IMG/VR virus record: IMGVR_UViG_2778261416_000003
Span: 1-18,122 of that record
DNA length: 18,122 nt
Direction: 5' to 3' (one strand)
Source: a virus
Taxonomy: Duplodnaviria > Heunggongvirae > Uroviricota > Caudoviricetes
In this document: positions 3,881-18,122 of the stretch, piece after piece
How positions within the stretch are numbered: position 1 is the stretch's first letter
Layout of the letters: every line of letters starts with the position of its first letter
Notes under the pieces: model-generated
Databases searched by the model: none
Seen by the model: only the letters and a program-made list of their open reading frames with translations
Told to the model about the DNA's origin: nothing
Program-made: the position numbers and the translations under genes

Positions 3881-4149
3881 GTAAAGTCGTACGCATTATT
3901 TTCGAATACAAGGAAGATGTTATCTGCAAAAACTCTGATGGCAGCACGCACAGAGGGGTAAGTCTGGATATACGTTCAACCGGAATAAAGAAGAAAGATA
4001 ATGGACCCGCCATGATTTTTGGGGTGGTTATGCTGGCAGAAAGCAGAAACTTCGCAGAGTTTGTGGCAATGAAAGCCAGTGCATTCATGAAAGACAGAGG
4101 CATGGCTTCCGGGGTTATTAACGGTAATGAATTTAATCAACAGGGGTAA
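3877..4149 (+). CDS. hypothetical early protein, member 1 of a tandem paralogue pair
   Basis: AGAGGA RBS then ATG 3877; N-terminus MSKVVRIIFEY resembles the next gene. Confidence 0.55.
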   Translation: MSKVVRIIFEYKEDVICKNSDGSTHRGVSLDIRSTGIKKKDNGPAMIFGVVMLAESRNFAEFVAMKASAFMKDRGMASGVINGNEFNQQG

Positions 4150-4153
4150 TTCC

Positions 4154-4447
4154 ATGAGCAAAGTACGCGTTATTTTTGAATTTAATCATGTTTCGCATGA
4201 CGAAAAGTTGGCAGGCAATGACTGTGTTGAAGTGCATGAAAAGATTGGAGTGGATGTGAAAACAGAACGTGATACGGATAACAGGCCGACGTCACTCTGT
4301 GACGTTTATGCAAGTATTCTCCAGTATCACAGTCCTGCAATTATTCAGTTTCTCTCAGCGGAATTTCAGGCATCTGCACAGTCTTTTGGAGCGGATGCCA
4401 TCATTAAACGCCACCGCGTGCATAAAGCATCAGGCACACTGCAATAA
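4154..4447 (+). CDS. hypothetical early protein, member 2 of a tandem paralogue pair
   Basis: AGGGG then ATG 4154 (internal Met of track ORF 4127..4447); N-terminus MSKVRVIFEF. Confidence 0.55.
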   Translation: MSKVRVIFEFNHVSHDEKLAGNDCVEVHEKIGVDVKTERDTDNRPTSLCDVYASILQYHSPAIIQFLSAEFQASAQSFGADAIIKRHRVHKASGTLQ

Positions 4448-4458
4448 GGAAAAACAAA

Positions 4459-4989
4459 ATGGCTAAACGCGTTACAAAATTAAAGGCCGCAGCCGAGGCG
4501 GCACCGCAGACCCGGGAAGAAGTCAGCCGTGATATCCGCACCCTGGGAGATATTCAGCGAGAGGCGCTGCGCCTGGAAACGGCGATGAATGACGAAGTGG
4601 CAGAAATCACCGCCCGTTATACGCCGCAGATTGAAAATCTTAAAAAGCAAATCAAAGTGCTTTTTAAAGGGATTCAGGACTGGTGCAAAACCAACCGTGA
4701 TGAGCTGACGAACGGCGGCAAAACCAAAACAGCCAATCTGACCACCGGAACGGTGTCATGGCGGCTGGGAACGCCATCATGCAGCGTCAGCCGTGATGTG
4801 GAAGGTGTGATTGAAATGCTGCGCCGTATGGGGCTTGAGCGTTTCATCCGCACGAAAGAGGAAGTGAACAAGGAAGCCGTCCTGGCGGAGCCGGATGCTG
4901 TGAAAGGCATTGCCGGTATCAAGGTGAATAAAGGCGCTGAAAGTTTTTATGTCGAGCCTTTTGAACAGGACGCCGGACTGAATAAATAA
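4459..4989 (+). CDS. gam: Mu Gam-like host-nuclease inhibitor (Ku-like dsDNA end-binding protein)
   Basis: 176 aa; colinear with Mu Gam (MAK...LKAAAEA, GDIQREALRLETAMNDEVAEIT, ANRDELTNGGKTKTANL, ERFIRTKEEVNKEA, EPFEQ); AAGGA RBS. Confidence 0.9.
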   Translation: MAKRVTKLKAAAEAAPQTREEVSRDIRTLGDIQREALRLETAMNDEVAEITARYTPQIENLKKQIKVLFKGIQDWCKTNRDELTNGGKTKTANLTTGTVSWRLGTPSCSVSRDVEGVIEMLRRMGLERFIRTKEEVNKEAVLAEPDAVKGIAGIKVNKGAESFYVEPFEQDAGLNK

Positions 4990-5134
4990 CACCACATTAA
5001 TCAATTAAATATCACTTCATTTTAATTATGGCGCTCGCGTCAGGGGACTGCTTGCGCCTGAAAACAGAAAATAAGGGTTAAGAAATATGAAATACGTTTA
5101 TATCGTCATTAATAATGTGGTGGGGAAATAAATC

Positions 5135-5668
5135 ATGATTGATGCAAAAGTGCTTGAAGGGGTTAAAAACTGGCTGTGTATTTATGGCCGCCTGACCTGC
5201 GGTGTACTGGCTGAAAAAATGAATATGCCGCCATCCTCCATGGTTTATTTTCTGCGTGATGCGGTTGATGCAGGCGTGCTGACGGAATGTAACGGTTTTT
5301 ATGATATTCCGCGCCCCCGCCCGGTGCAGCCGGTTCGTCGCAAATGCAGCCAGGAATCTGCGGCTGATGATGTTCAGTGGTGCGGCTTCAGAAAATCCCT
5401 GCCATGGATTGAGGGGCATGATATTCCGTCGATGGCGTGGGAATTTGCTCAGGGCGTTCTGACCTGTGAAACCGTTTATGTGGTGGCTGAAGTTGATGAG
5501 CAGGCCATGAAAGAAGGCGTGCCCCAGTTTGTGATGGCGTATATCGACATACGCCTGGGCGTCATTATCTGCGGTTTAAGCGGCTGGAATATCACTGAAC
5601 ATGTTCTGCGCTACCTGATTGTTGACCGGACAGCAGCGCCTGCCGGGATATCTGCGGAGGTGGCGTAA
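5135..5668 (+). CDS. hypothetical early protein with a possible N-terminal winged-helix DNA-binding region
   Basis: 177-aa ORF after a 145-bp AT-rich gap; GGGGA RBS; N-terminal pattern GRLTCGVLAEKMNMPPSSMVYFLRDAVDAGVL looks HTH-like. Confidence 0.55.
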   Translation: MIDAKVLEGVKNWLCIYGRLTCGVLAEKMNMPPSSMVYFLRDAVDAGVLTECNGFYDIPRPRPVQPVRRKCSQESAADDVQWCGFRKSLPWIEGHDIPSMAWEFAQGVLTCETVYVVAEVDEQAMKEGVPQFVMAYIDIRLGVIICGLSGWNITEHVLRYLIVDRTAAPAGISAEVA

Positions 5669-7426: not shown

Positions 7427-7735
7427 ATGAGTATTGAATTAAGATCGTCTTATGAATATCGCAAAATCCTTATCGCCGGAGGCATGAAACCGGAAGATGC
7501 AGAGAAATTCGTTTCTTTTATGGATAAAGAATGTGACAAGCGGGATATGCCAGAAATTATTATGGATGACATGATTCTGGATTCAGCCGTGGCGTTAAGT
7601 CCGTTATGGATTGTGCATACTCTTGCGGAAATAGCTAAAAGAAGTGACAAGCAGGCGGCTGTCGCCGCCCTGCGATTACTGGCTGAATTAAGTTGTTCAG
7701 TCAATCCCAATACGTTCTTTGACGAACCTGGTTAA
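7427..7735 (+). CDS. hypothetical early protein (102 aa)
   Basis: AGGTGA RBS then ATG 7427. Confidence 0.5.
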   Translation: MSIELRSSYEYRKILIAGGMKPEDAEKFVSFMDKECDKRDMPEIIMDDMILDSAVALSPLWIVHTLAEIAKRSDKQAAVAALRLLAELSCSVNPNTFFDEPG

Positions 7736-8107
7736 CATTGATTTGGTAACTTCTTTAATTAGATCAAATGGTGCGTCTGTAAACTCCTTTTTGATTCTTT
7801 CAAGGATTGGTTTTTTTCTCAGGGCGTTAGCTAAATCATGCCCCTGCTGGGTAAGCATAATGGGCGTGTTTCTGAAACCAACGCCCAGAGAATGGAAAAA
7901 GAAACCAATATATTTGGGTGTTTCTGACTGCATATCACCATTAACAATTGAGCCATTATCAGCGAGAAGCATAAGATGAAAAACTTTTTTATCCTTTTCC
8001 TCTCCTTCTGCCTCAGCCATGCCCAGATCCTGTAGTGTAAGGAAAGGTGTTTCAGCATCCTGAAAAGTTGTGAGAATACTTAATACTTCATCGTAATCTA
8101 TTTTCAT
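7697..8107 (-). CDS. hypothetical protein (136 aa), antisense moron at the early/late junction
   Basis: Only sizeable minus-strand ORF inside the + strand early operon; visibly AT-richer than flanks; AAAGG RBS upstream of ATG 8107 on the minus strand; 3' end overlaps the 7427..7735 gene convergently by ~39 bp. Confidence 0.5.
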   Translation of the reverse strand: MKIDYDEVLSILTTFQDAETPFLTLQDLGMAEAEGEEKDKKVFHLMLLADNGSIVNGDMQSETPKYIGFFFHSLGVGFRNTPIMLTQQGHDLANALRKKPILERIKKEFTDAPFDLIKEVTKSMLTRFVKERIGID

Positions 8108-8171
8108 ATCGATACCTTTAGTTTTATCCGGGCGGCGTTGCCATGCCGCCTGTTGTTACGGAGACACGATA

Positions 8172-8592
8172 ATGAATCGCGCTTCCCTGATTACCTTAAT
8201 ACATGTCGCAAAACGCGATCTACAGCTTGACCATGAGACCTACACATCCGTACTACTGGCAGCCACCGGCAAACCCAGTTGCCCGTTCAGAACGGTTTTC
8301 TGCCACCGTGCGTGGCTGGTTCCGGGATGATGGCCGGTTATGGGATGTCAATCTGCTGACCGGTGTTTCAGCCCTGCGTTTCGGTATAGAACAGACTGAA
8401 CTGCTGGTCTGTCAGGTGGAGTTTTTACTTGATGAACATAACGGGGAAGTCACCCGGCTGGTACTGGCACCGCGTGACGGCTTTATCGTTCCGGCAGAGC
8501 CGGACAGTAAGGGCCGGGGTGGTTCCGGTGACGATGTTGATGCCTTTATTCGCCAGCAGATGAAAAAACAGGGGATCAGCTTTGATGAATGA
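8172..8592 (+). pseudogene. GemA (Mu gp16)-like gene that changes frame, or a deletion-fusion remnant
   Basis: GGAGA RBS then ATG 8172; frame-0 ORF MNRASLITLIHVAKRDLQLDHETYTSVLLAATGKPSC... resembles the DUF1018/GemA N-terminus from memory but stops at 8330; the only long ORF continues in the +1 frame (8203..8592), has no RBS, and ends overlapping the gp45-like start. Confidence 0.35.
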
Positions 8593-9196: not shown

Positions 9197-9626
9197 TATT
9201 GCAATTGTATGGGATCAGGGGTGCGGTTCGCTGCAACTGAACGGTGCCGACCTGCTGACGGATGACAGTCTGCTGACGGCCGTTCTGATTTCGCTGTTTA
9301 CTGACCGCCGGGCGCTGGCATCGGATGAAATCCCTGACGGTACGCGTGACCGCCGGGGATGGTGGGGAGACAGTTTTCGCCCGCGTCCCATTGGCTCCCG
9401 TCTGTGGCTTCTCCGCCGGGAAAAAACGCTGGCCTCGGTGATAAGCCGTGCCCGTGCTTACGCGGATGAGGCGCTGGGCTGGCTCAGTCAGGATGGCGTG
9501 GCGTCATCCGTGGTCTGTCATGCAGAACGTGTGGGACACGCGCGGCTGGCGCTTTCGGTGCGCATAACCCTGCCTGATGGTTCAGTGAGGCCCATGATTT
9601 TTTATGCTGATCTTAAGGGGGAGTAA
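9189..9626 (+). CDS. Mu gp46-like baseplate protein
   Basis: ~145 aa from ATG 9189 (internal Met of track ORF 9045..9626, overlapping the gp45 stop); GWWGD motif; synteny. Confidence 0.8.
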   Translation: MADIAIVWDQGCGSLQLNGADLLTDDSLLTAVLISLFTDRRALASDEIPDGTRDRRGWWGDSFRPRPIGSRLWLLRREKTLASVISRARAYADEALGWLSQDGVASSVVCHAERVGHARLALSVRITLPDGSVRPMIFYADLKGE

Positions 9627-10708
9627 TGCCTTATCAGCCTTTACCGCTGGCACAGTTAATCACGCAGACACAGCAGGATATCAGCCAGCGCCTGCCCGGC
9701 TCGCAGCCGGGTGTGAATGAAACCACCCTGAATGCCATTGCTTACGCTCAGGCAGGGTTATCTGCTCAGGAGCATGAGCATCTGGCCTGGATTGCGCGTC
9801 AGATCATCCCGACCGAAGCCGATGAAGCCGAACTGCTGAAACACTGTGCATTCTGGGGCGTCATGCGTAAGCCTGCCTCTCGGGGGGACGGGCCGGTTCA
9901 GCTGATGCTGACCACGGATGCGGGGATCAAGGAAGGTGTGCTTCTCCAGCGAAGTGATGGCGTGGTTTACCGTATCACCACCTCCCTGACCGGTAAGGCC
10001 GGTACGCTGAATGTCAGTGTGGAAGCCGAAAGTGCCGGTCGTGCGGGGAATGCCCCGGCAGGGACAAAACTGACATTTATCACACCGCAGGCGGGGATCA
10101 ACCAGACGGCCACGGTGACCGGAACGGGGATCACCGGTGGTGCGGATGTGGAAACCGTGCCGGAGCTGCTTTCCCGTCTGGTTTTCCGGGTGCAGAATCC
10201 ACCGTCCGGCGGCACGCAGTATGATTTTGAACGCTGGGCGCGTGAAGTGCCGGGCGTGACGCGGGCATGGTGCCGCCCGGAATGGCCGCAGGCGGGCAGC
10301 GTGGGGGTAACGTTTGTTCAGGATAATAACCCGGACATTTTCCCCGGTGACGGTGATGTTCAGCGGGTGGCGGATTATATCCGCAGTCATGATGATCCGG
10401 CGACCGGCCAGCCTGTCGGACAGCCTCTGGGGCCGACGGTGACCGTGTTTAAACTGACCAATAAGCCGGTGCCCTTCAGCATCAGGATCATCCCGAAAAC
10501 ACCGGAGAATCAGGCGGCCGTAAAACAGGCGCTGACCGACCTGTTGTATAACGAATCCCGGCCCGGCGGTCTGGTTCTGCCGTCGTCTTTCTGGCGGGCG
10601 GTGGCAGGGGTGAAAAATCTGGAGGATTTTGAAGTGCGCAGTCCGCTGACGTCAGTTCAGGCGGGAGACAGTGAGCTGCTGACGGTAGGAGAAATCACAT
10701 GGCTGTAA
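9626..10708 (+). CDS. baseplate J-like protein (Mu gp47 family)
   Basis: 360 aa; GGGGGAG RBS; TAATG overlap with gp46; size and position match Mu gp47 / P2 J. Confidence 0.8.
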   Translation: MPYQPLPLAQLITQTQQDISQRLPGSQPGVNETTLNAIAYAQAGLSAQEHEHLAWIARQIIPTEADEAELLKHCAFWGVMRKPASRGDGPVQLMLTTDAGIKEGVLLQRSDGVVYRITTSLTGKAGTLNVSVEAESAGRAGNAPAGTKLTFITPQAGINQTATVTGTGITGGADVETVPELLSRLVFRVQNPPSGGTQYDFERWAREVPGVTRAWCRPEWPQAGSVGVTFVQDNNPDIFPGDGDVQRVADYIRSHDDPATGQPVGQPLGPTVTVFKLTNKPVPFSIRIIPKTPENQAAVKQALTDLLYNESRPGGLVLPSSFWRAVAGVKNLEDFEVRSPLTSVQAGDSELLTVGEITWL

Positions 10709-11259
10709 CCCTGACCCCGCATCAGCGCGCCCTGTTGCAGTTACTGCCTGACGGGCTGGCATGGGACAAGCGTCCGTCATCCGTACTGGCATCATTATGT
10801 CTGGGCCTCAGTCATTCGACAGCGCGTGTATCCTGGACGGGTAAACAGCTGCTTGCCGAGCGTTTCCCTGACACGTCGCGCCTGCTGCTGGAAGACTGGG
10901 AGCGTTATCTCGGGCTTCCCGAGTGTGATATGGCCGGAGCCACCCTCACGGAGCGACAGCGTTATGCCGGAAATAAATACCGGATGAAGCCCTCGCTGAA
11001 CCGTGAATTTTATATCCGGTTTGCGGCGGAGTTTGGTTATCAGATTGACATTCAGCCCTCACCGGATTCGCAGTGGGTCAGTATTGTCACGATTAACAGT
11101 GAAACCGGCTACCGGAATATGAATGTGCTGGATGATATTCTCACGCCGCTGCGTATTTATGAAGGCGGTGCGCTGGAATGTATTCTGAACCGTTATAAGC
11201 CTGCATGGCAGACGTTTATTTACGTTTATGCAAACAGCCATGAAGAGGAGACTATTTAA
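10699..11259 (+). CDS. Mu gp48-like tail protein (DUF2313 / YmfQ-like)
   Basis: 186 aa; AGGAG RBS; lies between the baseplate J-like gene and the tail fibre as in Mu and e14. Confidence 0.75.
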
Positions 11260-12140
11260 TGTTTCATGTTGATAATAATTCCGGCGTGGCGAATATGCCT
11301 GCGCTGGCACCGGCGCAGAGTAATACCACCACCTGGTTTACCGAAGGTGACGGACAAAAAGGTATCAGCTGGATTGGTCAGGACTGGCTGAATATTCTCC
11401 AGGCCGAACTGCTGAATATTCTGGCTGAAGCCAGTATTCAGCCGGATAAGGCGCAGTTAAACCAGCTTACGCTGTCCATTAAAGCCATTATCGCTGCGAA
11501 TGCCTTTTCCCGGAAAAATAACCTGAAAGAAATTGCTGATGCCGGTGCGGAGGCCCAGCGTCTGGCCCGTGGTTATCTTGGTCTGGGGACGCTTGCCACA
11601 AAAAACAGTCTTGGTCCCGCTGACATTAATGCCCTGGCGAAGGATCAGAATCTCGCCGACCTGGAGAATAAGGGAACCGCCCGTAATAATCTGGATGTTT
11701 ACAGCAAAAGCGAAGGTGATAACCGTTACCTGCGCAGGGAGCAGAACGGCGCAGACATTCCGGATAAAGGGGCTTTTATCGATAACGTCGGTTTACGGGA
11801 AACGGTAAACAGGGCGGCGAATGCCCTGCCATCGGACGGCACCGCCGTTGCCGCGAACAGGCTGGCAAATGCCCACACAATTAATGGTGTTCCCTTTGAC
11901 GGGACGCAGGATATCACTATCTCATCAGGAACAGTAACCGCCATAAGACTGGGGTCGGTGACCGCACATATGCCCGGAACATGGGAAAGCTGGGATCTGA
12001 ATCTGGGGGGCGGCAATGTTCTTACCGGAATTAAAGTACAGGATGTCGGTAAGAATACGGCAGATAACGTCGGCGGCGTGTATTACCGGCCGTTGCAGTA
12101 TCTGTTAAATGGAGCATGGGTGACGGCTGCAAGTATATAA
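11259..12140 (+). CDS. tail fibre protein, constant N-terminal part plus variable C-terminal part (current orientation)
   Basis: 293 aa; tail-fibre-like N-terminus; C-terminal [18 protein letters not shown] resembles the P2 H C-terminus; a gix-like site lies inside the gene at 11776..11801. Confidence 0.85.
11776..11801. repeat. gix-like recombination site, left (inside the tail-fibre gene)
   Basis: TTATCGATAACGTCGGTTTACGGGAA, about 22/26 identical to the reverse complement of the Mu gix sequence as remembered; the inverted repeat begins at its centre. Confidence 0.7.
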
Positions 12141-12149
12141 TGATATTCA

Positions 12150-12173
12150 GAAGGCCTTCCGGCCTTCTTTATT
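12150..12173. terminator. intrinsic terminator hairpin between the convergent fibre and assembly genes
   Basis: GAAGGCC-TTCC-GGCCTTC (7-bp stem, 4-nt loop) followed by TTTATT on the + strand. Confidence 0.6.
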
Positions 12174-12693
12174 ACTGTGGCTGCTCAGGCCATTTAATGG
12201 CGTTAAATTCAGCTTCTGTTTTAATGGCGGGTAGTTCCATTTTCTTCACCTGACTGATGTATGCCATCCATTGGGTAAGTGCTGCTCTGTCTTCATCGCT
12301 GATGGTGCCCAGTTGTAGCTCCGTTCTCCAGTCATTAATTTTTTCATATGCCTGATTAAGATATGACTGGCGCATTGCTTCCAGTTTTCTTGCGTAGTTA
12401 ACCGGAATACGGGAGATTATGCCATTATCAAACTTCCAGTTTCCTGAAATATCCGTGCCTTCAGGGAGTTCATCGACCTCAACCACAGAAAACCCCGCAG
12501 GATACAGCGCCGAGGCGTCCTGTGATATTGAGCAGATAACGCCGCTGTCAGGTGTTATGCAAAGTTTATATTTTTTGGTGAATAATGGCAGGGATTCGTA
12601 GAAATCCTTACCATCTTCACTCTGGAAATACTGAACATTATTACCATATGGCATATTTTCAGGATAATAACGGGTTATATTTTTTAGTTCCAT
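12172..12693 (-). CDS. tail fibre assembly protein (Tfa / Mu U' / P2 G family)
   Basis: 173 aa; SEDGKDFYE...DASALYPAGFSVVEVDELP and C-terminal WPEQPQ match Tfa-family proteins such as e14 TfaE as remembered. Confidence 0.85.
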   Translation of the reverse strand: MELKNITRYYPENMPYGNNVQYFQSEDGKDFYESLPLFTKKYKLCITPDSGVICSISQDASALYPAGFSVVEVDELPEGTDISGNWKFDNGIISRIPVNYARKLEAMRQSYLNQAYEKINDWRTELQLGTISDEDRAALTQWMAYISQVKKMELPAIKTEAEFNAIKWPEQPQ

Positions 12694-12744
12694 AAAATCC
12701 TCCTGGAAATAAATCTGTTTTAAAATATATTATTTACTGACTAT

Positions 12745-13107
12745 TTATAACTGAGATACCGTAATCCATGTACCTCCGACTAATTTTTGCAGGGGTCTGA
12801 ATGCTATAAAATCGTTTGAAGCATCAACTTTACTGTCAATCTGCAGGCCTGCCATAACATTACCGTACGCAGAGTAATATGCCCCACCGTACATTACCTG
12901 CCTGTTCTCTGCTCCCAGCCTGATATCCTGGATATATCGGGAATCCGCATCCTGCTGTGTTATACCAGAAGTGATGTTTATGTCCTGCGTCCCGTCAAAG
13001 GGAACCCCATTAATATTTCTTGGGGTGGCGAGTCTATTCGCGGCAACGGCGGTGCCGTCCGATGGCAGAGCATTCGCCGCCCTGTTTACCGTTTCCCGTA
13101 AACCGAG
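12745..13107 (-). CDS. alternative tail-fibre C-terminal cassette (S'v-like); start-less, expressed only after inversion
   Basis: Minus-strand frame from the gixR centre to stop at 12745 reads [24 protein letters not shown]...FRPLQKLVGGTWITVSQL, sharing the first ~23 aa and the C-terminal pattern with the + strand fibre; followed on the minus strand by the Tfa gene. Confidence 0.75.
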   Translation of the reverse strand, partial: LGLRETVNRAANALPSDGTAVAANRLATPRNINGVPFDGTQDINITSGITQQDADSRYIQDIRLGAENRQVMYGGAYYSAYGNVMAGLQIDSKVDASNDFIAFRPLQKLVGGTWITVSQL

Positions 13108-13118
13108 GTTTTCAGGAA
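13093..13118. repeat. gix-like recombination site, right
   Basis: TTCCCGTAAACCGAGGTTTTCAGGAA, about 22/26 identical to the Mu gix sequence TTCCTGTAAACCGAGGTTTTGGATAA as remembered. Confidence 0.75.
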
Positions 13119-13183
13119 AGCCAGGATTAACTCTGTTTTATTCCTCATGCGACAATTCCGGCTTTTTATAATAAGGAAATCGT

Positions 13184-13756
13184 ATGCTGATTGGGTATAT
13201 CAGGGTGTCAACAAATGACCAGAATACGGCGCTACAAAGAAATGCGCTGGAATGTGCAGGATGTGAGCTGTTTTTCGAAGACAGAATAAGCGGTAAGACA
13301 AGGGAGCGTCCCGGACTTAAACGCGCATTAAAGCGACTCCGGCCAGGGGATACCCTGCTGGTCTGGAAACTGGATCGCCTTGGACGCAGTATGCAGCACC
13401 TTGTCCTTTTAACAGAAGAACTCCGGCAACGCGGCGTTAACTTCCGCAGCATTACGGACAATATTGATACATCCACTCCCATGGGACGTTTCTTTTTCCA
13501 TATAATGGGCGCGCTGGCGGAAATGGAGCGGGAACTCATTATTGAACGTACACGCGCGGGTCTTGCTGCTGCCCGTGCTCAGGGGCGTCATGGCGGCAGA
13601 CCTCAGAAACTGACAGAGAAAGAGCGGGAGCAAATCGCCCGTTTGCTGGCTAATGGCGAGTCCCGTAAACAAATCGCACTGATATTTGATATTGGCCTTT
13701 CCACCCTTTATCGTTATTTTCCTGCCTCACCAGCTCCGTCACCAAAAGTACCGTGA
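13184..13756 (+). CDS. gin: serine DNA invertase (Gin/Pin/Hin family)
   Basis: 190 aa; MLIGYIRVSTNDQN catalytic-serine N-terminus, WKLDRLGRSM, GRFFFHIMGALAEMERELIIERT, C-terminal HTH; near-colinear with Pin/Gin; AAGGA RBS. Confidence 0.95.
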   Translation: MLIGYIRVSTNDQNTALQRNALECAGCELFFEDRISGKTRERPGLKRALKRLRPGDTLLVWKLDRLGRSMQHLVLLTEELRQRGVNFRSITDNIDTSTPMGRFFFHIMGALAEMERELIIERTRAGLAAARAQGRHGGRPQKLTEKEREQIARLLANGESRKQIALIFDIGLSTLYRYFPASPAPSPKVP

Positions 13757-13765
13757 CGCTTTTTT
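13737..13765 (+). terminator. candidate intrinsic terminator at the end of gin
   Basis: CGTCAC ... GTGACG (6-bp stem, 10-nt loop) followed by C plus T6 (13760..13765). Confidence 0.45.
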
Positions 13766-13841: not shown

Positions 13842-15896
13842 ATGTCAGACTCCAAGTGGAAAATGCTCTCCGCCATGCCCGGAGAGTTTTCAGTCAAGGT
13901 TGCCGGTGGCACGGTGGCATTTATTGAAAGCCCTTTCCGCCCTTCGGGTAATAAAGGGGGGATCACCTTCGCAGACTGCGTGATCCGCTTCAGCACGAAA
14001 GAGCCATTATGGGTAATGCCGGTATCCGGTAATCCCAGTGCAGAAATCACCAGTTCAGGCGTGACTGGCATCATTCCAATCACATCTGACGTGGCCGGAA
14101 CGCTCACGCCCTCCGACTGGAATGCACCGGATAACGCCGGGCCTTCCGGTAGCACGAATGGCAGCAGTTCAAAGCCGGAATATTACTTTGTTGTCATTCT
14201 CGCGGGTCAGTCAAATGGCATGGCCTACGGCGAGGGGCTGCCGTTACCGGATTCGTTTGACCGCCCGGACCCACGCATTAAGCAACTGGCACGCCGCAGT
14301 ACGGTAACGCCCAACGGTACGTCGTGTACATACAACGACATCATTCCGGCAGACCACTGCCTGCATGATGTTCAGGATATGAGCGGGATAAACCACCCGA
14401 AAGCTGATCTGGCAAAAGGCCAGTACGGGACTGTCGGTCAGGGGTTGCATATTGCCAAAAAACTGCTTCCCTATATCCCACAGAATGCCGGGATACTTCT
14501 GGTGCCCTGTTGTCGTGGCGGGTCAGCATTCACCACTGGAGCCGACGGCTCATTCAGTGAGGCCAGCGGTGCTTCCGCTGATTCTTCACGCTGGGGGGCC
14601 GGTAAACCTCTGTATCAGGACCTGGTAAGCCGCACCAAAGTCGCGCTGGCGAAAAACCCGAAAAACAAACTTCTGGCTGTGGTCTGGATGCAGGGAGAGG
14701 CAGACCTTGCCTCAGGAAGCCAGCAGCATAATAGTTTATTCACGGCCATGGTTCAGCAGTTCAGAACTGACCTGGCTCCGCTTGCTGCGCAGTGCGTGAG
14801 TGGAAATGCCACCACGGTGCCGTGGATTTGCGGTGATACCACGTATTACTGGAAAAACGCTGGCACCGATAAATATGAGGCAGTATACGGTGGCTACAAA
14901 GGCAAGGAAGCACAGAAAATTTTCTTTGTACCGTTCCTGACGGATGAGAATGGACAGAGCACGCCAACGAATGCTCCGGCGGAAGACCCGGATATTGTGG
15001 CTGTCGGGTATTACGGTGCAGCATCCCGAACCCAGGGCAGTTTTGTTTCGACACAGCGTGACAGCCATTTCAGCTCATGGGCACGCAGGGGCGTCATTTC
15101 AGACCGTCTGGCCTCAGCTATTATGCTCCATGCAGGGCGCACGGCTGAACTGATGCGCGGGCAGACCGTGACACCACCGGATGAGAAGCCGTCACCTGAT
15201 ACACCATCAAAACCGTCCACGCCACCCGCAGACACCACGACGATGAGTACGCTATTTGCTTACCGGGCATCTGAGTCTGAAGGACGGTTGACACCACAGG
15301 GTTGGGCTGCCGGAGGTGGCAAGGCTCAAATCGTGGATGATGCCGGAGCCAGCGGGGGTAAGGCAATGAAACTGACCAAGGAAACAGGAAGAGCCCCCTG
15401 GTACCTTGAGCATGATGCTGGTAATGGTGCGGACCTGCTGGGTAAAGGTGGTCTTGTCAGTTGTCGTTTTAAACTCGATGGCGCGCTTACGGCTAATCAG
15501 TACGCACTGGCGCTGTACTGGCCGGTTTCTGCCCTGCCGCAAGGGGTTACTCTGGAAGGAAATGCCGGTCATAACCTGCTGGCATCGTTCTACGTACAGA
15601 GCGATGCCACAGACCTTAACGTGATGTATCACAAAGGAAACACGGCGCAGAACACGAAGCTGGGGTCATTCGGCGCATTTAATAACGAATGGCATACGCT
15701 GGGCTTCCGTTTTGCCGGTAACAACAGTATTGAGGTGACACCGGTCATTGATGGTAAGGACGGGACACCATTCATGCTGTCGCAGTCTCCGGTCGGCACG
15801 TTTACGGCAGACAAGTTGCGCGTGACCGATATCACTAAAAATGCGACTTACCCGGTACTGATTGACAGTATCGTGGTGGAAGTGAATAACGCGTAA
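13842..15896 (+). CDS. prophage-type sialate O-acetylesterase (NanS-p-like; SGNH/SASA esterase core, Pro/Ser/Thr linker, C-terminal lectin-like domain)
   Basis: 684 aa; esterase-core motif ILAGQSNGMAYGEGLPLPD, then VPCCRGGSAF and WMQGEADL; PPDEKPSPDTPSKPSTPPADTTT linker; location after tail-fibre genes as for NanS-p in Stx prophages; start codon uncertain. Confidence 0.75.
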   Translation: MSDSKWKMLSAMPGEFSVKVAGGTVAFIESPFRPSGNKGGITFADCVIRFSTKEPLWVMPVSGNPSAEITSSGVTGIIPITSDVAGTLTPSDWNAPDNAGPSGSTNGSSSKPEYYFVVILAGQSNGMAYGEGLPLPDSFDRPDPRIKQLARRSTVTPNGTSCTYNDIIPADHCLHDVQDMSGINHPKADLAKGQYGTVGQGLHIAKKLLPYIPQNAGILLVPCCRGGSAFTTGADGSFSEASGASADSSRWGAGKPLYQDLVSRTKVALAKNPKNKLLAVVWMQGEADLASGSQQHNSLFTAMVQQFRTDLAPLAAQCVSGNATTVPWICGDTTYYWKNAGTDKYEAVYGGYKGKEAQKIFFVPFLTDENGQSTPTNAPAEDPDIVAVGYYGAASRTQGSFVSTQRDSHFSSWARRGVISDRLASAIMLHAGRTAELMRGQTVTPPDEKPSPDTPSKPSTPPADTTTMSTLFAYRASESEGRLTPQGWAAGGGKAQIVDDAGASGGKAMKLTKETGRAPWYLEHDAGNGADLLGKGGLVSCRFKLDGALTANQYALALYWPVSALPQGVTLEGNAGHNLLASFYVQSDATDLNVMYHKGNTAQNTKLGSFGAFNNEWHTLGFRFAGNNSIEVTPVIDGKDGTPFMLSQSPVGTFTADKLRVTDITKNATYPVLIDSIVVEVNNA

Positions 15897-15901
15897 GCAG
15901 G

Positions 15902-15943
15902 ATAAAAAAATGCCGCCGGTAAGGGAAAACAAGAAACCGGCGG
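15902..15943 (-). terminator. minus-oriented intrinsic terminator
   Basis: GCCGCCGGT ... ACCGGCGGC (9-bp stem, 15-nt loop); on the minus strand the hairpin is followed by T7 (+ 15903..15909). Confidence 0.45.
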
Positions 15944-15992
15944 CAAAAAGATCGTTATATCCAAAGCAAAAAATGCAGTGCACCTTTTTACC
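15903..15992 (-). ncRNA. candidate small RNA (~90 nt) divergent from the small membrane-peptide gene
   Basis: Minus-strand TTGACA (+ 16025..16020), 15-nt spacer, TAATAT (+ 16004..15999), then the terminator above; no ORF. Confidence 0.25.
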
Positions 15993-16040: not shown

Positions 16041-16223
16041 ATGACATTTTTACAGCTTATTTTATTGTATTTCTGCACGGCAGTATGTGCGTTATATCTG
16101 GTGAGTGGTGGTTATAAGGCCATCAGAAATTATGTTCGCCGCAAAATTGAGGACGCAGCAGCTGAAAAACTCAGTAAAACAGCGCAGGTAACTCCGCTCC
16201 CAAAAGACCCGACCCAGCCCTGA
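16041..16223 (+). CDS. small membrane peptide (60 aa, one predicted TM helix, basic C-terminal tail)
   Basis: GGGAGGG RBS 4 nt upstream of ATG 16041; hydrophobic stretch FLQLILLYFCTAVCALYLVSGG; terminator immediately downstream. Confidence 0.45.
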   Translation: MTFLQLILLYFCTAVCALYLVSGGYKAIRNYVRRKIEDAAAEKLSKTAQVTPLPKDPTQP

Positions 16224-16258: not shown

Positions 16259-16513
16259 ATGCCAGAAATTAAAGGCACCGTCACTGAAGACCTGGTAAAA
16301 CAGGCACTGTATTCCGGTGAAGTAAATAAGTTGCTGAAAGCGCAGGTCCGCAAGGATTTTGAGGCACAAATCGACACTTACGTTGATGAAGTGCTGGCAA
16401 AACTTATTGGGCCAGCAGTTGCGGCCAGTGATGCTGATAATGAGCCGAAAACCGACGCGCAGCCAGAGCAACCAGACCCGGCTCAGCCCGGAACTGACAG
16501 TACCATGATGTAA
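16259..16513 (+). CDS. hypothetical acidic protein (84 aa)
   Basis: AGGAGG RBS 6 nt upstream of ATG 16259; hairpin CAAACCGG ... CCGGTTTG (16519..16546) downstream. Confidence 0.5.
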   Translation: MPEIKGTVTEDLVKQALYSGEVNKLLKAQVRKDFEAQIDTYVDEVLAKLIGPAVAASDADNEPKTDAQPEQPDPAQPGTDSTMM

Positions 16514-16680
16514 CAATACAAACCGGTGGTGTCCTCTGCCGGTTTGACACTAATGAAAACATCTTTGCCGCTATCCAGCCATATGTAATCGCTGGATAGT
16601 ATTTCGTATTCAGAAATATAGCTGCTTATGGAGCAGTCAATCCTGCTTCCCCATCCGGGCAGGCAAATGAACCGGTATCA

Positions 16681-16974
16681 TTAGTCCGATTCACGCTTTT
16701 GTAGAATCGTTCCCAGAATGCTATACAGCTCATTAGCCTGTTGCTCCATCATTGAGACGGAGGCTATACGGTGCAAAGTGATTTCAGGAGGTGGCACACC
16801 TCCATCTTCTTGCTGTGGAGGAAAAACATAAGATTTAATAAAAAAGTTGAAGCATATGAACTCTCCCGCACTCGAACTGTATTTGCAGGCATCTGAATAA
16901 TCGGAAAAATAATCATTATAGATTTCCGCATTTTCAATCATTTTTCGATTTCTCGTCGTTACATGATTGTCCAT
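16681..16974 (-). CDS. hypothetical protein (97 aa), divergent from com-mom
   Basis: AAGAGG RBS 5 nt upstream of ATG 16974 on the minus strand; AT-rich; downstream hairpin CTATCCAGC ... GCTGGATAG at 16567..16598. Confidence 0.45.
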   Translation of the reverse strand: MDNHVTTRNRKMIENAEIYNDYFSDYSDACKYSSSAGEFICFNFFIKSYVFPPQQEDGGVPPPEITLHRIASVSMMEQQANELYSILGTILQKRESD

Positions 16975-17097
16975 AGCAGCCTCTTACGCTGGCAATTAAC
17001 CAATTGACTTCTATAAATTAGTTGATTTGTTTGCTTTGCGGTATTCAAATGTACAATCATTCAGCACTTATGCGTTACAGCACCGTTTAAAATTAGT

Positions 17098-17190
17098 GAT
17101 CAAACTCATAAATTTTCGCTAATGACATTTCGTGTTATTTGTTGTATCAATTAAATAAATCAAATCGATCGTTTTTGTCGATCGATTGAG
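17098..17190 (+). promoter_or_regulatory. com-mom upstream regulatory region with three GATC (Dam) sites and a palindrome
   Basis: GATC at 17098..17101, 17167..17170 and 17180..17183; palindrome AATCGATCG-N7-CGATCGATT (17163..17187); Mu mom is known to be controlled by Dam methylation of three upstream GATC sites. Confidence 0.4.
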
Positions 17191-17230
17191 TGATAAAGAT
17201 ATCAACAACAAAGCAGGAGGTTATGCGGCC

Positions 17231-17431
17231 ATGTATCGAAACATACGGTGCCGACATTGTAACAAGCTACTGGCACGAGCCAGCTTCAGTTATCTGGAAG
17301 TTAAATGTCCGCGCTGTAAAACCCTCAATCAAATCACATCTCAGAGCGCCACAGAGCACCCCACATACACAAGGAAATCCTGTCGTGGGGAACAGAAAGC
17401 AAGTTACATCCCGTATCATCAGCACGCCTGA
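17231..17431 (+). CDS. com: Com-like zinc-finger translational activator of mom
   Basis: 66 aa; CxxC...CxxC (CRHC ... CPRC); AGGAGG 10 nt upstream of ATG 17231; overlaps the mom reading frame as in Mu. Confidence 0.75.
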
Positions 17432-18122
17432 ACTTATTCACTATAACGACAATATCGTCGGTTATGGCTCCCGTGAGTTACGGGTTGAGACAATAAGTTG
17501 CTGGCTGGCCCGGCTGGTCGTCGTCAATAAACATTACAGCCATCGTTTCGTAAATAATTCCTACCTTCATCTGGGCATATTTTCAGAACGGGAGCTGGTT
17601 GGCGTAATGCAATGGGGTTATGCCCTTAATCCAAACAATGGTGCACGCGTCGTAACTGGCACGCAGAACCGCGAATATATGGAGCTTAACCGGTTATGGC
17701 TGCATGACTGTATGCCGAGAAACTCCGAATCAAGGGCAATCAGTTACGCGCTCAAACTAATCAGACAACTTTATCCGCAGGTGCAGTGGGTTCAGTCGTT
17801 TGCAGATGAGCGTTGTGGCTGTCTTGGTGTCGTGTACCAGGCAAGCAATTTTGATTATGTAGGCAGTCATGAAACAACATTCTATGAACTTGATGGCGAG
17901 TGGTATCACGAGATTTGCAAGAATGCAATCAAACGAGGAGGACAGCGAGGTGAACATCTGCGGGCTAATATCGACAGAGCCAGTGTTCATAAATTCCGTC
18001 AGTTTCGTTACATCCGGTTTCTGGACAAGAGAGCCAGAAAACGCCTTAACACAAAGCTATTCAAAGTCCAGCCTTACCCAAAACCACAAACAGTTAAAAC
18101 TGGTTTGAAAGAGAGTGAATGA
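17385..18122 (+). CDS. mom: Mom-like DNA modification protein; start uncertain (ORF open from 17190)
   Basis: Long ORF in a different frame overlapping the 3' half of com; GTG 17385 has AGGA 9 nt upstream; rightmost-gene position after gin and com as in Mu. Confidence 0.7.

Follow-up and report, generated by a model that had tools for sequence, protein, structure and literature searches.

NanS-p has so far been treated as a fitness factor of lambdoid (Shiga toxin, Stx, phage) origin that lets pathogenic Escherichia coli use the O-acetylated sialic acids of mucin. Experiments have shown the NanS-p proteins of EDL933 and O104:H4 to be active esterases that allow growth on 5-N-acetyl-9-O-acetylneuraminic acid (Neu5,9Ac2; PMC8065619, PMC10462455), and the NanS-p of phage phi24B, gp84, is abundant in virions, where its DUF1737 domain occupies the hexon centres as a hexamer, and is proteolytically processed at its linkers (bioRxiv 10.64898/2026.04.10.717836, a 2026 preprint). 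In Stx phage PA28 the gene order is stxAB, nanS-p, DUF1378, DUF826, holin S and lysozyme, and that of a non-Stx lambdoid prophage reads Q, methylase, nanS-p, DUF1378, a small open reading frame (ORF) and holin. A gene of the same family occupies a different setting in the DNA analyzed here, the 18,122-nucleotide IMG/VR record IMGVR_UViG_2778261416_000003 (hereafter, the window), which holds a Mu-like prophage with a 684-amino acid (aa) ORF between the invertase gene gin and com-mom. On the strength of sequence comparison, this ORF very probably encodes a functional NanS-p-family sialate O-acetylesterase, carried in a mobile module that was captured once by the Mu lineage to which prophage Sp18 of E. 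coli O157:H7 Sakai belongs.

An intact esterase gene with a NanS-p body

The ORF (13842–15896, plus strand) starts with ATG and forms an intact reading frame in the window, and the identical coding sequence (CDS), with the same start, is annotated by PGAP/RefSeq as a 'DUF6645 domain-containing protein' (WP_001284083.1) in a 100% identical chromosome segment of E. coli strain JKHS016; some relatives already bear the NCBI label 'sialate O-acetylesterase'. The structure of E. coli NanS/YjhS (PDB 3PT5) matches residues 110–428 (E=1.7e-117, 58% identity over 315 residues) and that of the NanS-p C-terminal domain (PDB 6YP6) matches residues 469–683 (E=7.1e-98), while Pfam places SASA (PF03629) at residues 117–312 with 51.3 bits (cutoff 24.8) and DUF6645 (PF20350) at residues 533–650 with 226.5 bits. 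Over its full length, the protein is 62–68% identical to the NanS-p of Stx phages. A first-pass annotation, made from the nucleotide sequence, had proposed that a NanS-p-like sialate O-acetylesterase is encoded, built of an SGNH/SASA core, a Pro/Ser/Thr linker and a C-terminal lectin-like domain, and had tied the identification to SASA/NanS similarity around the motif GQSNGMAYGEG. These matches bear it out: the similarity is present around the motif (residues 122–132), the linker is seen at residues 431–468, and the lectin-like domain is covered by 6YP6 and DUF6645.

The active-site blocks of 3PT5, tabulated as GQSNA, RGGSAF, MQGEFD and R-x-SHFS (PMC10792757), are all four intact in the window protein, as GQSNG (122–126), RGGSAF (225–230), MQGEAD (283–288) and RDSHFS (406–411). 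In SASA/CE6 enzymes (PF03629), the Gln adjoining the catalytic Ser and the (H)QGE motif make an inverted oxyanion hole (PMC9487903), and both hallmarks are found, the former as GQS (122–124) and the latter as the QGE of block III (MQGE, 283–286). Besides conserving GQSN, RGGSAF, MQGE and R-x-SHFS, the window esterase shares with NanS the SASA-specific lack of the block V Asp; unlike NanS, a single-domain protein of ~326 aa encoded in the nanCMS operon, it is phage-borne and has a beta domain and a lectin-like domain flanking the catalytic one. By homology, the SGNH/SASA domain would employ Ser124 as the nucleophile and His409 as the base, with the Gln/QGE oxyanion arrangement of the SASA type, and would de-O-acetylate sialic acids such as Neu5,9Ac2, and the jelly-roll domain would bind a glycan.

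A codon-level comparison with two Mu-type homologues gives ratios of nonsynonymous to synonymous substitution rates (dN/dS) of 0.09–0.25 in each domain, which, together with the structure, Pfam and PHROG matches and the intact catalytic blocks, argues for an intact NanS-p-family enzyme under purifying selection and not for a remnant. It is very improbable that the gene is a decaying, non-functional passenger of a defective prophage: the window prophage is internally deleted and is without regulatory, lysis, head and tail-tube genes, and the 100% identical JKHS016 locus lies in a scrambled prophage with many pseudogenes, but the ORF is full length with every catalytic block in place, dN/dS is ~0.1–0.2, and many genomes encode an identical (100%) protein. 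Moreover, intact relatives carry the gene, namely Sp18, which is predicted to be intact (PMC2669165), and Mu_JNE082796, which had transposed into an Stx phage.

A mobile module at the right end of Mu-like prophages

MuA, MuB, Gam and gp45–48 are encoded upstream in the window, and gin, com and mom follow in the Mu order together with the GATC cluster of the mom regulatory region. Compared with the right end of Mu, gin is 74% identical and com-mom with its clustered GATC sites is kept, whereas the distance from the gin stop to the com start, 94 bp in Mu, is ~3.47 kb in the window. Since the alignment with Mu puts the conserved GATC cluster at ~17165–17185, the extra DNA is bounded at 13757 and ~17140; 90% identity to Mu_JNE082796 picks up again at 17122. 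The cargo that had been described at first as lying between gin and com-mom in a Mu-like element is therefore really there, with gin upstream and com and mom downstream, although it is not a single 2-kb gene but a block of ~3.4 kb with four ORFs: nanS-p, DUF1378, DUF826 and a minus-strand orphan.

Apart from the orphan, these genes are the trio that precedes holin S in lambdoid phages, and the likeness to lambdoid and Stx-phage NanS-p extends to the SASA and DUF6645 jelly-roll domains, the Pro/Ser/Thr linker, and a hairpin with an A-tract located just after the stop codon. In the window, this hairpin (15911–15945) has a 10-bp GC-rich stem and a folding free energy (dG) of -20 kcal/mol (z -4.5 on the plus strand and -5.3 on the minus strand), equalled by 0 of 200 shuffled sequences. 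Because the A7 tract precedes the stem on the plus strand, the hairpin has the form of a terminator on the minus strand only, in agreement with the minus-oriented terminator first proposed downstream of the gene. It is kept in 14 of 14 distinct sequence variants, lambdoid and Mu-like, with at least four different stem sequences and always with A7–8 before the stem on the coding strand. The suggestion of modular transfer is thus upheld, since the DUF1378 and DUF826 genes and the post-stop hairpin that accompany the esterase here are also found alongside it in lambdoid phages. Conversely, the terminator-like hairpin previously read at the end of gin is weak and no better than chance, as its dG is -6.8 kcal/mol (z -1.2), 23 of 200 shuffles fold equally well, the terminator scan misses it, and it is not conserved in Sp18 or Mu_JNE082796.

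The same layout, consisting of invertase, esterase with the Mu-type N-terminus, DUF1378, DUF826, a minus-strand ORF, com and mom, is present in Sp18 (ECs_4992–4998), in the 40-kb Mu_JNE082796 (LC727881), inserted in an Stx2c phage, and, without gin, in strain M3. ECs_4993 of Sp18 is 66% identical to the window esterase, and both it and the Mu_JNE082796 homologue share with the window the architecture, including the Mu-type N-terminus (58–61% identity), the gene order and the gin-esterase spacer; they differ in overall identity (66–68%), in a body that is nearer to the 933W type (78%) than to the window (70%), and in the minus-strand ORF. Moreover, the 33 IMG/VR contigs with a Mu-type N-terminus have a Mu-like layout throughout, as far as each contig reaches; one of them, L018, is a hybrid that runs into lambdoid lysis genes. 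The interruption of the gin-com interval is thus shared by these relatives and is not peculiar to the window.

The link between module and lineage is also seen when loci are collected by Mom. Among the 80 IMG/VR loci retrieved in this way, the module is present in 25 of 25 with a Mom at least 96% identical, one being the hybrid L049 with a DUF1737-type gene, whereas the esterase body, DUF1378 and DUF826 are present in 0 of 55 with a Mom at most 82% identical, several of which have a Mu-like gin-mom spacing of ~275 bp and one of which, L079, holds solely a DUF1737 remnant disrupted by an insertion sequence (IS). Window-type com-mom (at least 80% coverage) is found in 226 of 5426 complete E. coli genomes, and the N-terminal coding region of the esterase in at least 32, at 43 places, a count that is a lower bound because Sp18-type DNA, ~69% identical, is at the sensitivity limit of the search and Sakai is not among the 32. 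No locus was found in the GTDB species-representative genomes. Outside E. coli, a Salmonella homologue sits in a Mu-like prophage, downstream of gp45–48, fibre genes and gin. In the Salmonella enterica contig L005, which stops inside the esterase, two small ORFs of 58 aa (with a hydrophobic C-terminus) and 87 aa lie between gin and the esterase (9426–9910).

Both E. coli lineages have homologous DNA between gin and the esterase, which points to a single old capture of the module; far from being a recent or isolated acquisition, the module is a fixed, long-standing feature of the Sp18-like Mu lineage. Specifically, a mobile unit made of nanS-p, DUF1378, DUF826 and the conserved post-stop hairpin, common to lambdoid phages, where it lies between stx/Q and holin S, would have been captured once between gin and the mom promoter in this lineage and then retained. 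Several Sp18-like prophages are missing gin (L006 of E. coli M3, 11849–12154; L017, L018, L022, L025 and L030), and in these the match to the window restarts at 13690, 66 bp before the gin stop, with the esterase directly after the tail-fibre assembly gene; such phages have presumably lost G-segment inversion. In the literature searched, no paper treating nanS-p together with phage Mu was found, nor was ECs4993. The enzyme family, its structure and its carriage by phages are already known, and the Mu-like location has been public since Sakai Sp18; no paper was found on the N-terminal replacement described below, on the fixation of the module in the Sp18-like Mu lineage, or on recombination between Mu-like and lambdoid alleles.

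In the window, the esterase gene comes directly after the tail-fibre genes, the fibre-assembly gene and gin. The vicinity of this host-range region suggests a different substrate, namely that the enzyme deacetylates the bacterial surface (O-antigen or an O-acetylated polysialic K1-type capsule) for adsorption, release or a change in superinfection. De-O-acetylation of lipopolysaccharide (LPS) has been raised as an open possibility for NanS-p (review PMC8065619), residues 211–312 weakly match the PHROGs 'tail protein' family phrog_25867 (8.6e-7), and a weak tblastn match to an Arthrobacter phage minor tail protein is also found. Such a role is nonetheless unlikely, given that free 9-O-acetyl N-acetylneuraminic acid (Neu5Ac) is the best substrate of NanS, to which the catalytic domain is 58% identical, that the body is 90% identical to lambdoid alleles located far from tail genes, that the nearest characterised relatives act on mucin sialic acids, and that no tail-fibre or baseplate attachment motif is present.

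Mosaic alleles and a replaced N-terminal domain

The body of the window esterase, from just before GQSN to the C-terminus, is 90–91% identical to some DUF1737-type alleles of non-Stx lambdoid prophages, which sit in Q-methylase-nanS-p-DUF1378-holin contexts, compared with 68–70% to the 933W type and 70% to the Mu_JNE082796/Sp18 body; the Mu_JNE082796 body is, in turn, nearer to the 933W type (78%). The N-termini follow the opposite pattern, with 58% identity between the two Mu types and a noise-level similarity to DUF1737. Likewise, across the IMG/VR loci, the body is 51–100% identical to that of the window, and the N-terminus is always either 60–62% or 97–100% identical. Two contigs of IMG genome 2617270962 are reciprocal hybrids with the crossover inside the nanS-p body: in L018, Mu tail genes, the Mu-type N-terminus and the body are followed by lambdoid DUF1378-holin-lysozyme-Rz, and in L049, lambdoid RusA-Q-methylase and DUF1737 precede the body, DUF1378, DUF826, com and mom. 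The pair reflects either a genuine inversion via nanS-p or a chimeric assembly. The opposite patterns of body and N-terminus identities, together with the hybrids, indicate that the body and the small genes are a recombination substrate common to both phage types, and they would have been repeatedly overwritten via recombination with co-resident lambdoid alleles.

Two loci were considered and discarded as cases of a DUF1737-type esterase borne by a Mu-like phage. L049 is the hybrid partner of L018, with lambdoid RusA-Q-methylase upstream, and L079 holds an IS-disrupted remnant. In the latter (4046–5469), a 71-aa DUF1737 N-terminal fragment, 96% identical to the N-terminus of PA28 NanS-p, is cut by an IS3-family element and located ~2 kb upstream of gin with Mu-type protein sequence, followed by com and mom; the locus has the look of a composite formed by IS activity. 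A NanS-p-type esterase, with a DUF1737-type N-terminus and after the lysis genes, is also found in P2-like (Peduoviridae) coliphages (3770–5020 in L007, vB_EcoM-569R5; 4764–6227 in L012, P88-like), so that the NanS-p enzyme is present in at least three temperate phage groups.

The part of the protein that does not follow this traffic is the N-terminus, its one unusual feature. The first-pass annotation had pointed to DUF1737, for which the Pfam search gave no PF08410 match in the whole protein, nor in residues 1–113 alone at E<=10. No alignment with the lambdoid N-terminus is obtained for the first ~100 residues (16–25% identity), and precomputed Pfam assignments place PF08410 in the lambdoid relatives of 647–650 aa and not in the Mu-type ones of 678–691 aa. 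An AlphaFold2 model from a six-sequence alignment has a five-strand all-beta domain at residues ~7–79, with block values of the predicted local distance difference test (pLDDT) of 73–88 over residues 1–70. Residues 1–82 are accordingly modelled as a different, lineage-specific beta domain that replaces DUF1737: the lambdoid domain is ~55 aa long, alpha+beta and, in phi24B, capsid-binding, whereas the unrelated one of the window is predicted to be all-beta over ~82 aa. A word-indexed search, and HMMER run in full over 1.84 billion representative proteins, restrict the domain to E. coli/Shigella esterases and one Salmonella protein, likewise fused to a GQSN esterase, apart from one spurious low-complexity match; it is known only from Mu-like prophages of these three groups.

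The DUF1737 hexamers of phi24B suggest, as a tentative refinement, that the N-terminal beta domain is an undescribed virion anchor that holds the esterase-lectin on the capsid or tail of Mu-like particles, where it would help them to traverse or bind mucus. A virion-associated enzyme had been the alternative offered in the first-pass annotation, and phi24B gp84 now supplies a precedent for it. The analogy rests on the binding of the gp84 DUF1737 to capsid hexons and the later processing of the protein (bioRxiv 10.64898/2026.04.10.717836). Exactly the lambdoid residues ~1–57 are swapped for another small folded domain with a disordered Ser/Pro-rich linker; the domain evolves under purifying selection, has been retained at 30% identity in the Salmonella Mu-like prophage, is always fused to an esterase among the proteins scanned, and is never found in a wholly non-Mu context. 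On the other hand, the hexon-binding DUF1737 of gp84-type capsid decoration proteins is precisely what the window protein misses, and fold searches with the N-terminal domain return generic small beta-barrels only. The domain is unlike any structural protein of the same phage, with no significant paralogue in tblastn searches of L001, L006, L011, Mu and the window, and the occurrence of the DUF1737 type in P2-like phages indicates that it is not bound to one capsid architecture. Furthermore, because the N-termini share no homology, gene conversion limited to homologous stretches would by itself keep each N-terminus linked to its phage type, and this linkage is no proof of functional co-adaptation. 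An anchor of this kind would refine, and does not exclude, the reading of the gene as a NanS-p-family esterase in a module captured once.

Expression, site of action and significance

Several observations weigh against a functional esterase of this family in the window. The esterase activity on record in the literature is that of lambdoid alleles (PMC8065619), and of the three canonical NanS-p domains, DUF1737 is missing here. A sigma-70 scan of the 85-bp gap upstream of the esterase gave nothing convincing as a promoter, with only a 9/12 match inside the gin 3' end and overall counts at chance level, and the palindrome TGATA-N4-TATCA, considered as an activator site of the esterase, does not recur upstream of it. 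In addition, the gp16 region of the window prophage is joined straight to mid-gpP (baseplate) at ~8279–8283 (context 7697–8592), with loss of Mor, C, lysis, head, sheath, tube and tape-measure genes. As Mor, C, lysis, head and tail-tube genes are missing, lysis-dependent release or virion attachment is impossible from the window copy, which could serve the host only. This junction is found in 0 of 5426 complete E. coli genomes, in which each half matches separately, and it reflects a deletion specific to the strain or else a join made in assembly.

Substrate, expression timing and site of action are what we infer for the NanS-p-type esterase. Lambdoid nanS-p belongs to the Q-dependent late operon, between stx/Q and holin S, whereas the window gene is at a Mu-like right end, between gin and the mom promoter, and this difference in genomic position implies that its regulation must differ; read-through from gin is the simplest explanation for its transcription. 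The esterase has no signal-peptide-like N-terminus, for which reason its site of action would be either the lysogen cytoplasm, with imported Neu5,9Ac2 as the substrate, or the exterior once the phage has lysed the cell, where it may be tethered to the virion.

The features of the locus and its neighbourhood are collected in Table 1. The minus-strand orphan ORF has no family match in Pfam, PHROG, NCBIfam or PADLOC, and window 16500–17120 has no phage DNA match. In Sp18 this position is taken by a different minus-strand gene of 154 aa (ECs_4996), which makes it a variable moron slot. A defence-system role for the block was considered and set aside, as PADLOC gave no credible match. A perfect copy of the palindrome, TGATA-AAGA-TATCA, lies at 17191–17204, between the GATC cluster and com, where the Mu sequence differs, and it may be an activator site of the mom promoter of this lineage; its only other window site, at 4270–4283, has one mismatch, and at least two matches occur in 17 of 200 shuffles. 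Lastly, the invertible host-range region (12172–13119) seems reduced.

Table 1. Coordinates of the esterase gene, its domains and the surrounding features in the window
Feature	Coordinates	Strand	Remarks
Fibre gene	11259-12140	+	
Fibre-assembly gene	12172-12693	-	
Short tail-fibre remnant	12745-12894	-	Marked incomplete by PGAP in the identical locus
gin, G-segment DNA invertase, 190 aa	13184..13756	+	Left border of accessory block; Pfam Resolvase 1.6e-51 and HTH_7; 74% identity to Mu Gin
Weak hairpin, 6-bp stem, 10-nt loop (13737-13758), then T6	13737..13765	+	Overlaps gin stop codon
nanS-p-type sialate O-acetylesterase CDS, 684 aa	13842..15896	+	phrog_143 E=3e-296; dN/dS 0.11-0.14 overall
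N-terminal domain, predicted all-beta, residues 1-82	13842..14087	+	In DUF1737 position; specific to Mu lineage
Ser/Gly/Pro-rich disordered linker 1, residues 83-112	14088..14177	+	pLDDT <50 over residues 83-115
SASA/SGNH catalytic domain, residues 113-430	14178..15131	+	Ser124 codon 14211-14213; His409 codon 15066-15068
Pro/Ser/Thr-rich linker 2, residues 431-468	15132..15245	+	Translation TVTPPDEKPSPDTPSKPSTPPADTTT; most variable segment among homologues
C-terminal lectin-like jelly-roll domain, DUF6645, residues 469-684	15246..15893	+	PDB 6YP6; Pfam PF20350
GC-rich hairpin 15911-15945 with A7 tract 15904-10 (+ strand)	15904..15945	-	Intrinsic-terminator-like on minus strand; part of mobile module
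DUF1378 small membrane protein gene	16041..16223	+	Pfam PF07125 1.2e-31; start per PGAP
DUF826 gene	16259..16513	+	Pfam PF05696 6.4e-16; phrog_311
Hairpin between convergent DUF826 (+) and orphan ORF (-)	16519..16546	.	dG -16.7, z -3.2
Orphan ORF, 97 aa (86 aa per PGAP)	16681..16974	-	AT-rich variable slot, GC 35-42%
mom-operon regulatory region	17150..17230	+	Right border of accessory block; clustered GATC motif homologous to Mu; aligned with Mu gin-com intergenic region and Mu_JNE082796
com	17231-17431	+	Pfam Zn_ribbon_Com; PGAP coordinates
mom	17385-18122	+	Pfam Mom; PGAP coordinates

An enzyme module regarded as a lambdoid fitness factor is thus also a fixed part of a transposable Mu-like lineage that is common in E. 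coli and includes Sp18 of O157 Sakai. In practice, the finding allows better annotation of the genes labelled 'DUF6645 domain-containing protein' or 'hypothetical' in Mu-like prophages and adds one more nanS-p allele class to counts of esterase gene dosage in E. coli that produce Shiga toxin (STEC), a modest yield. The esterase body provides a homology stretch for recombination between Mu-like and lambdoid prophages, and the N-terminal module alone differs by phage type, which bears on whether these proteins are virion decorations with exchangeable anchors or cargo of the lysogen. If the N-terminal domain does act as a virion anchor, unrelated temperate coliphages would have equipped their virions independently with the same mucus-modifying enzyme, via interchangeable anchor domains.

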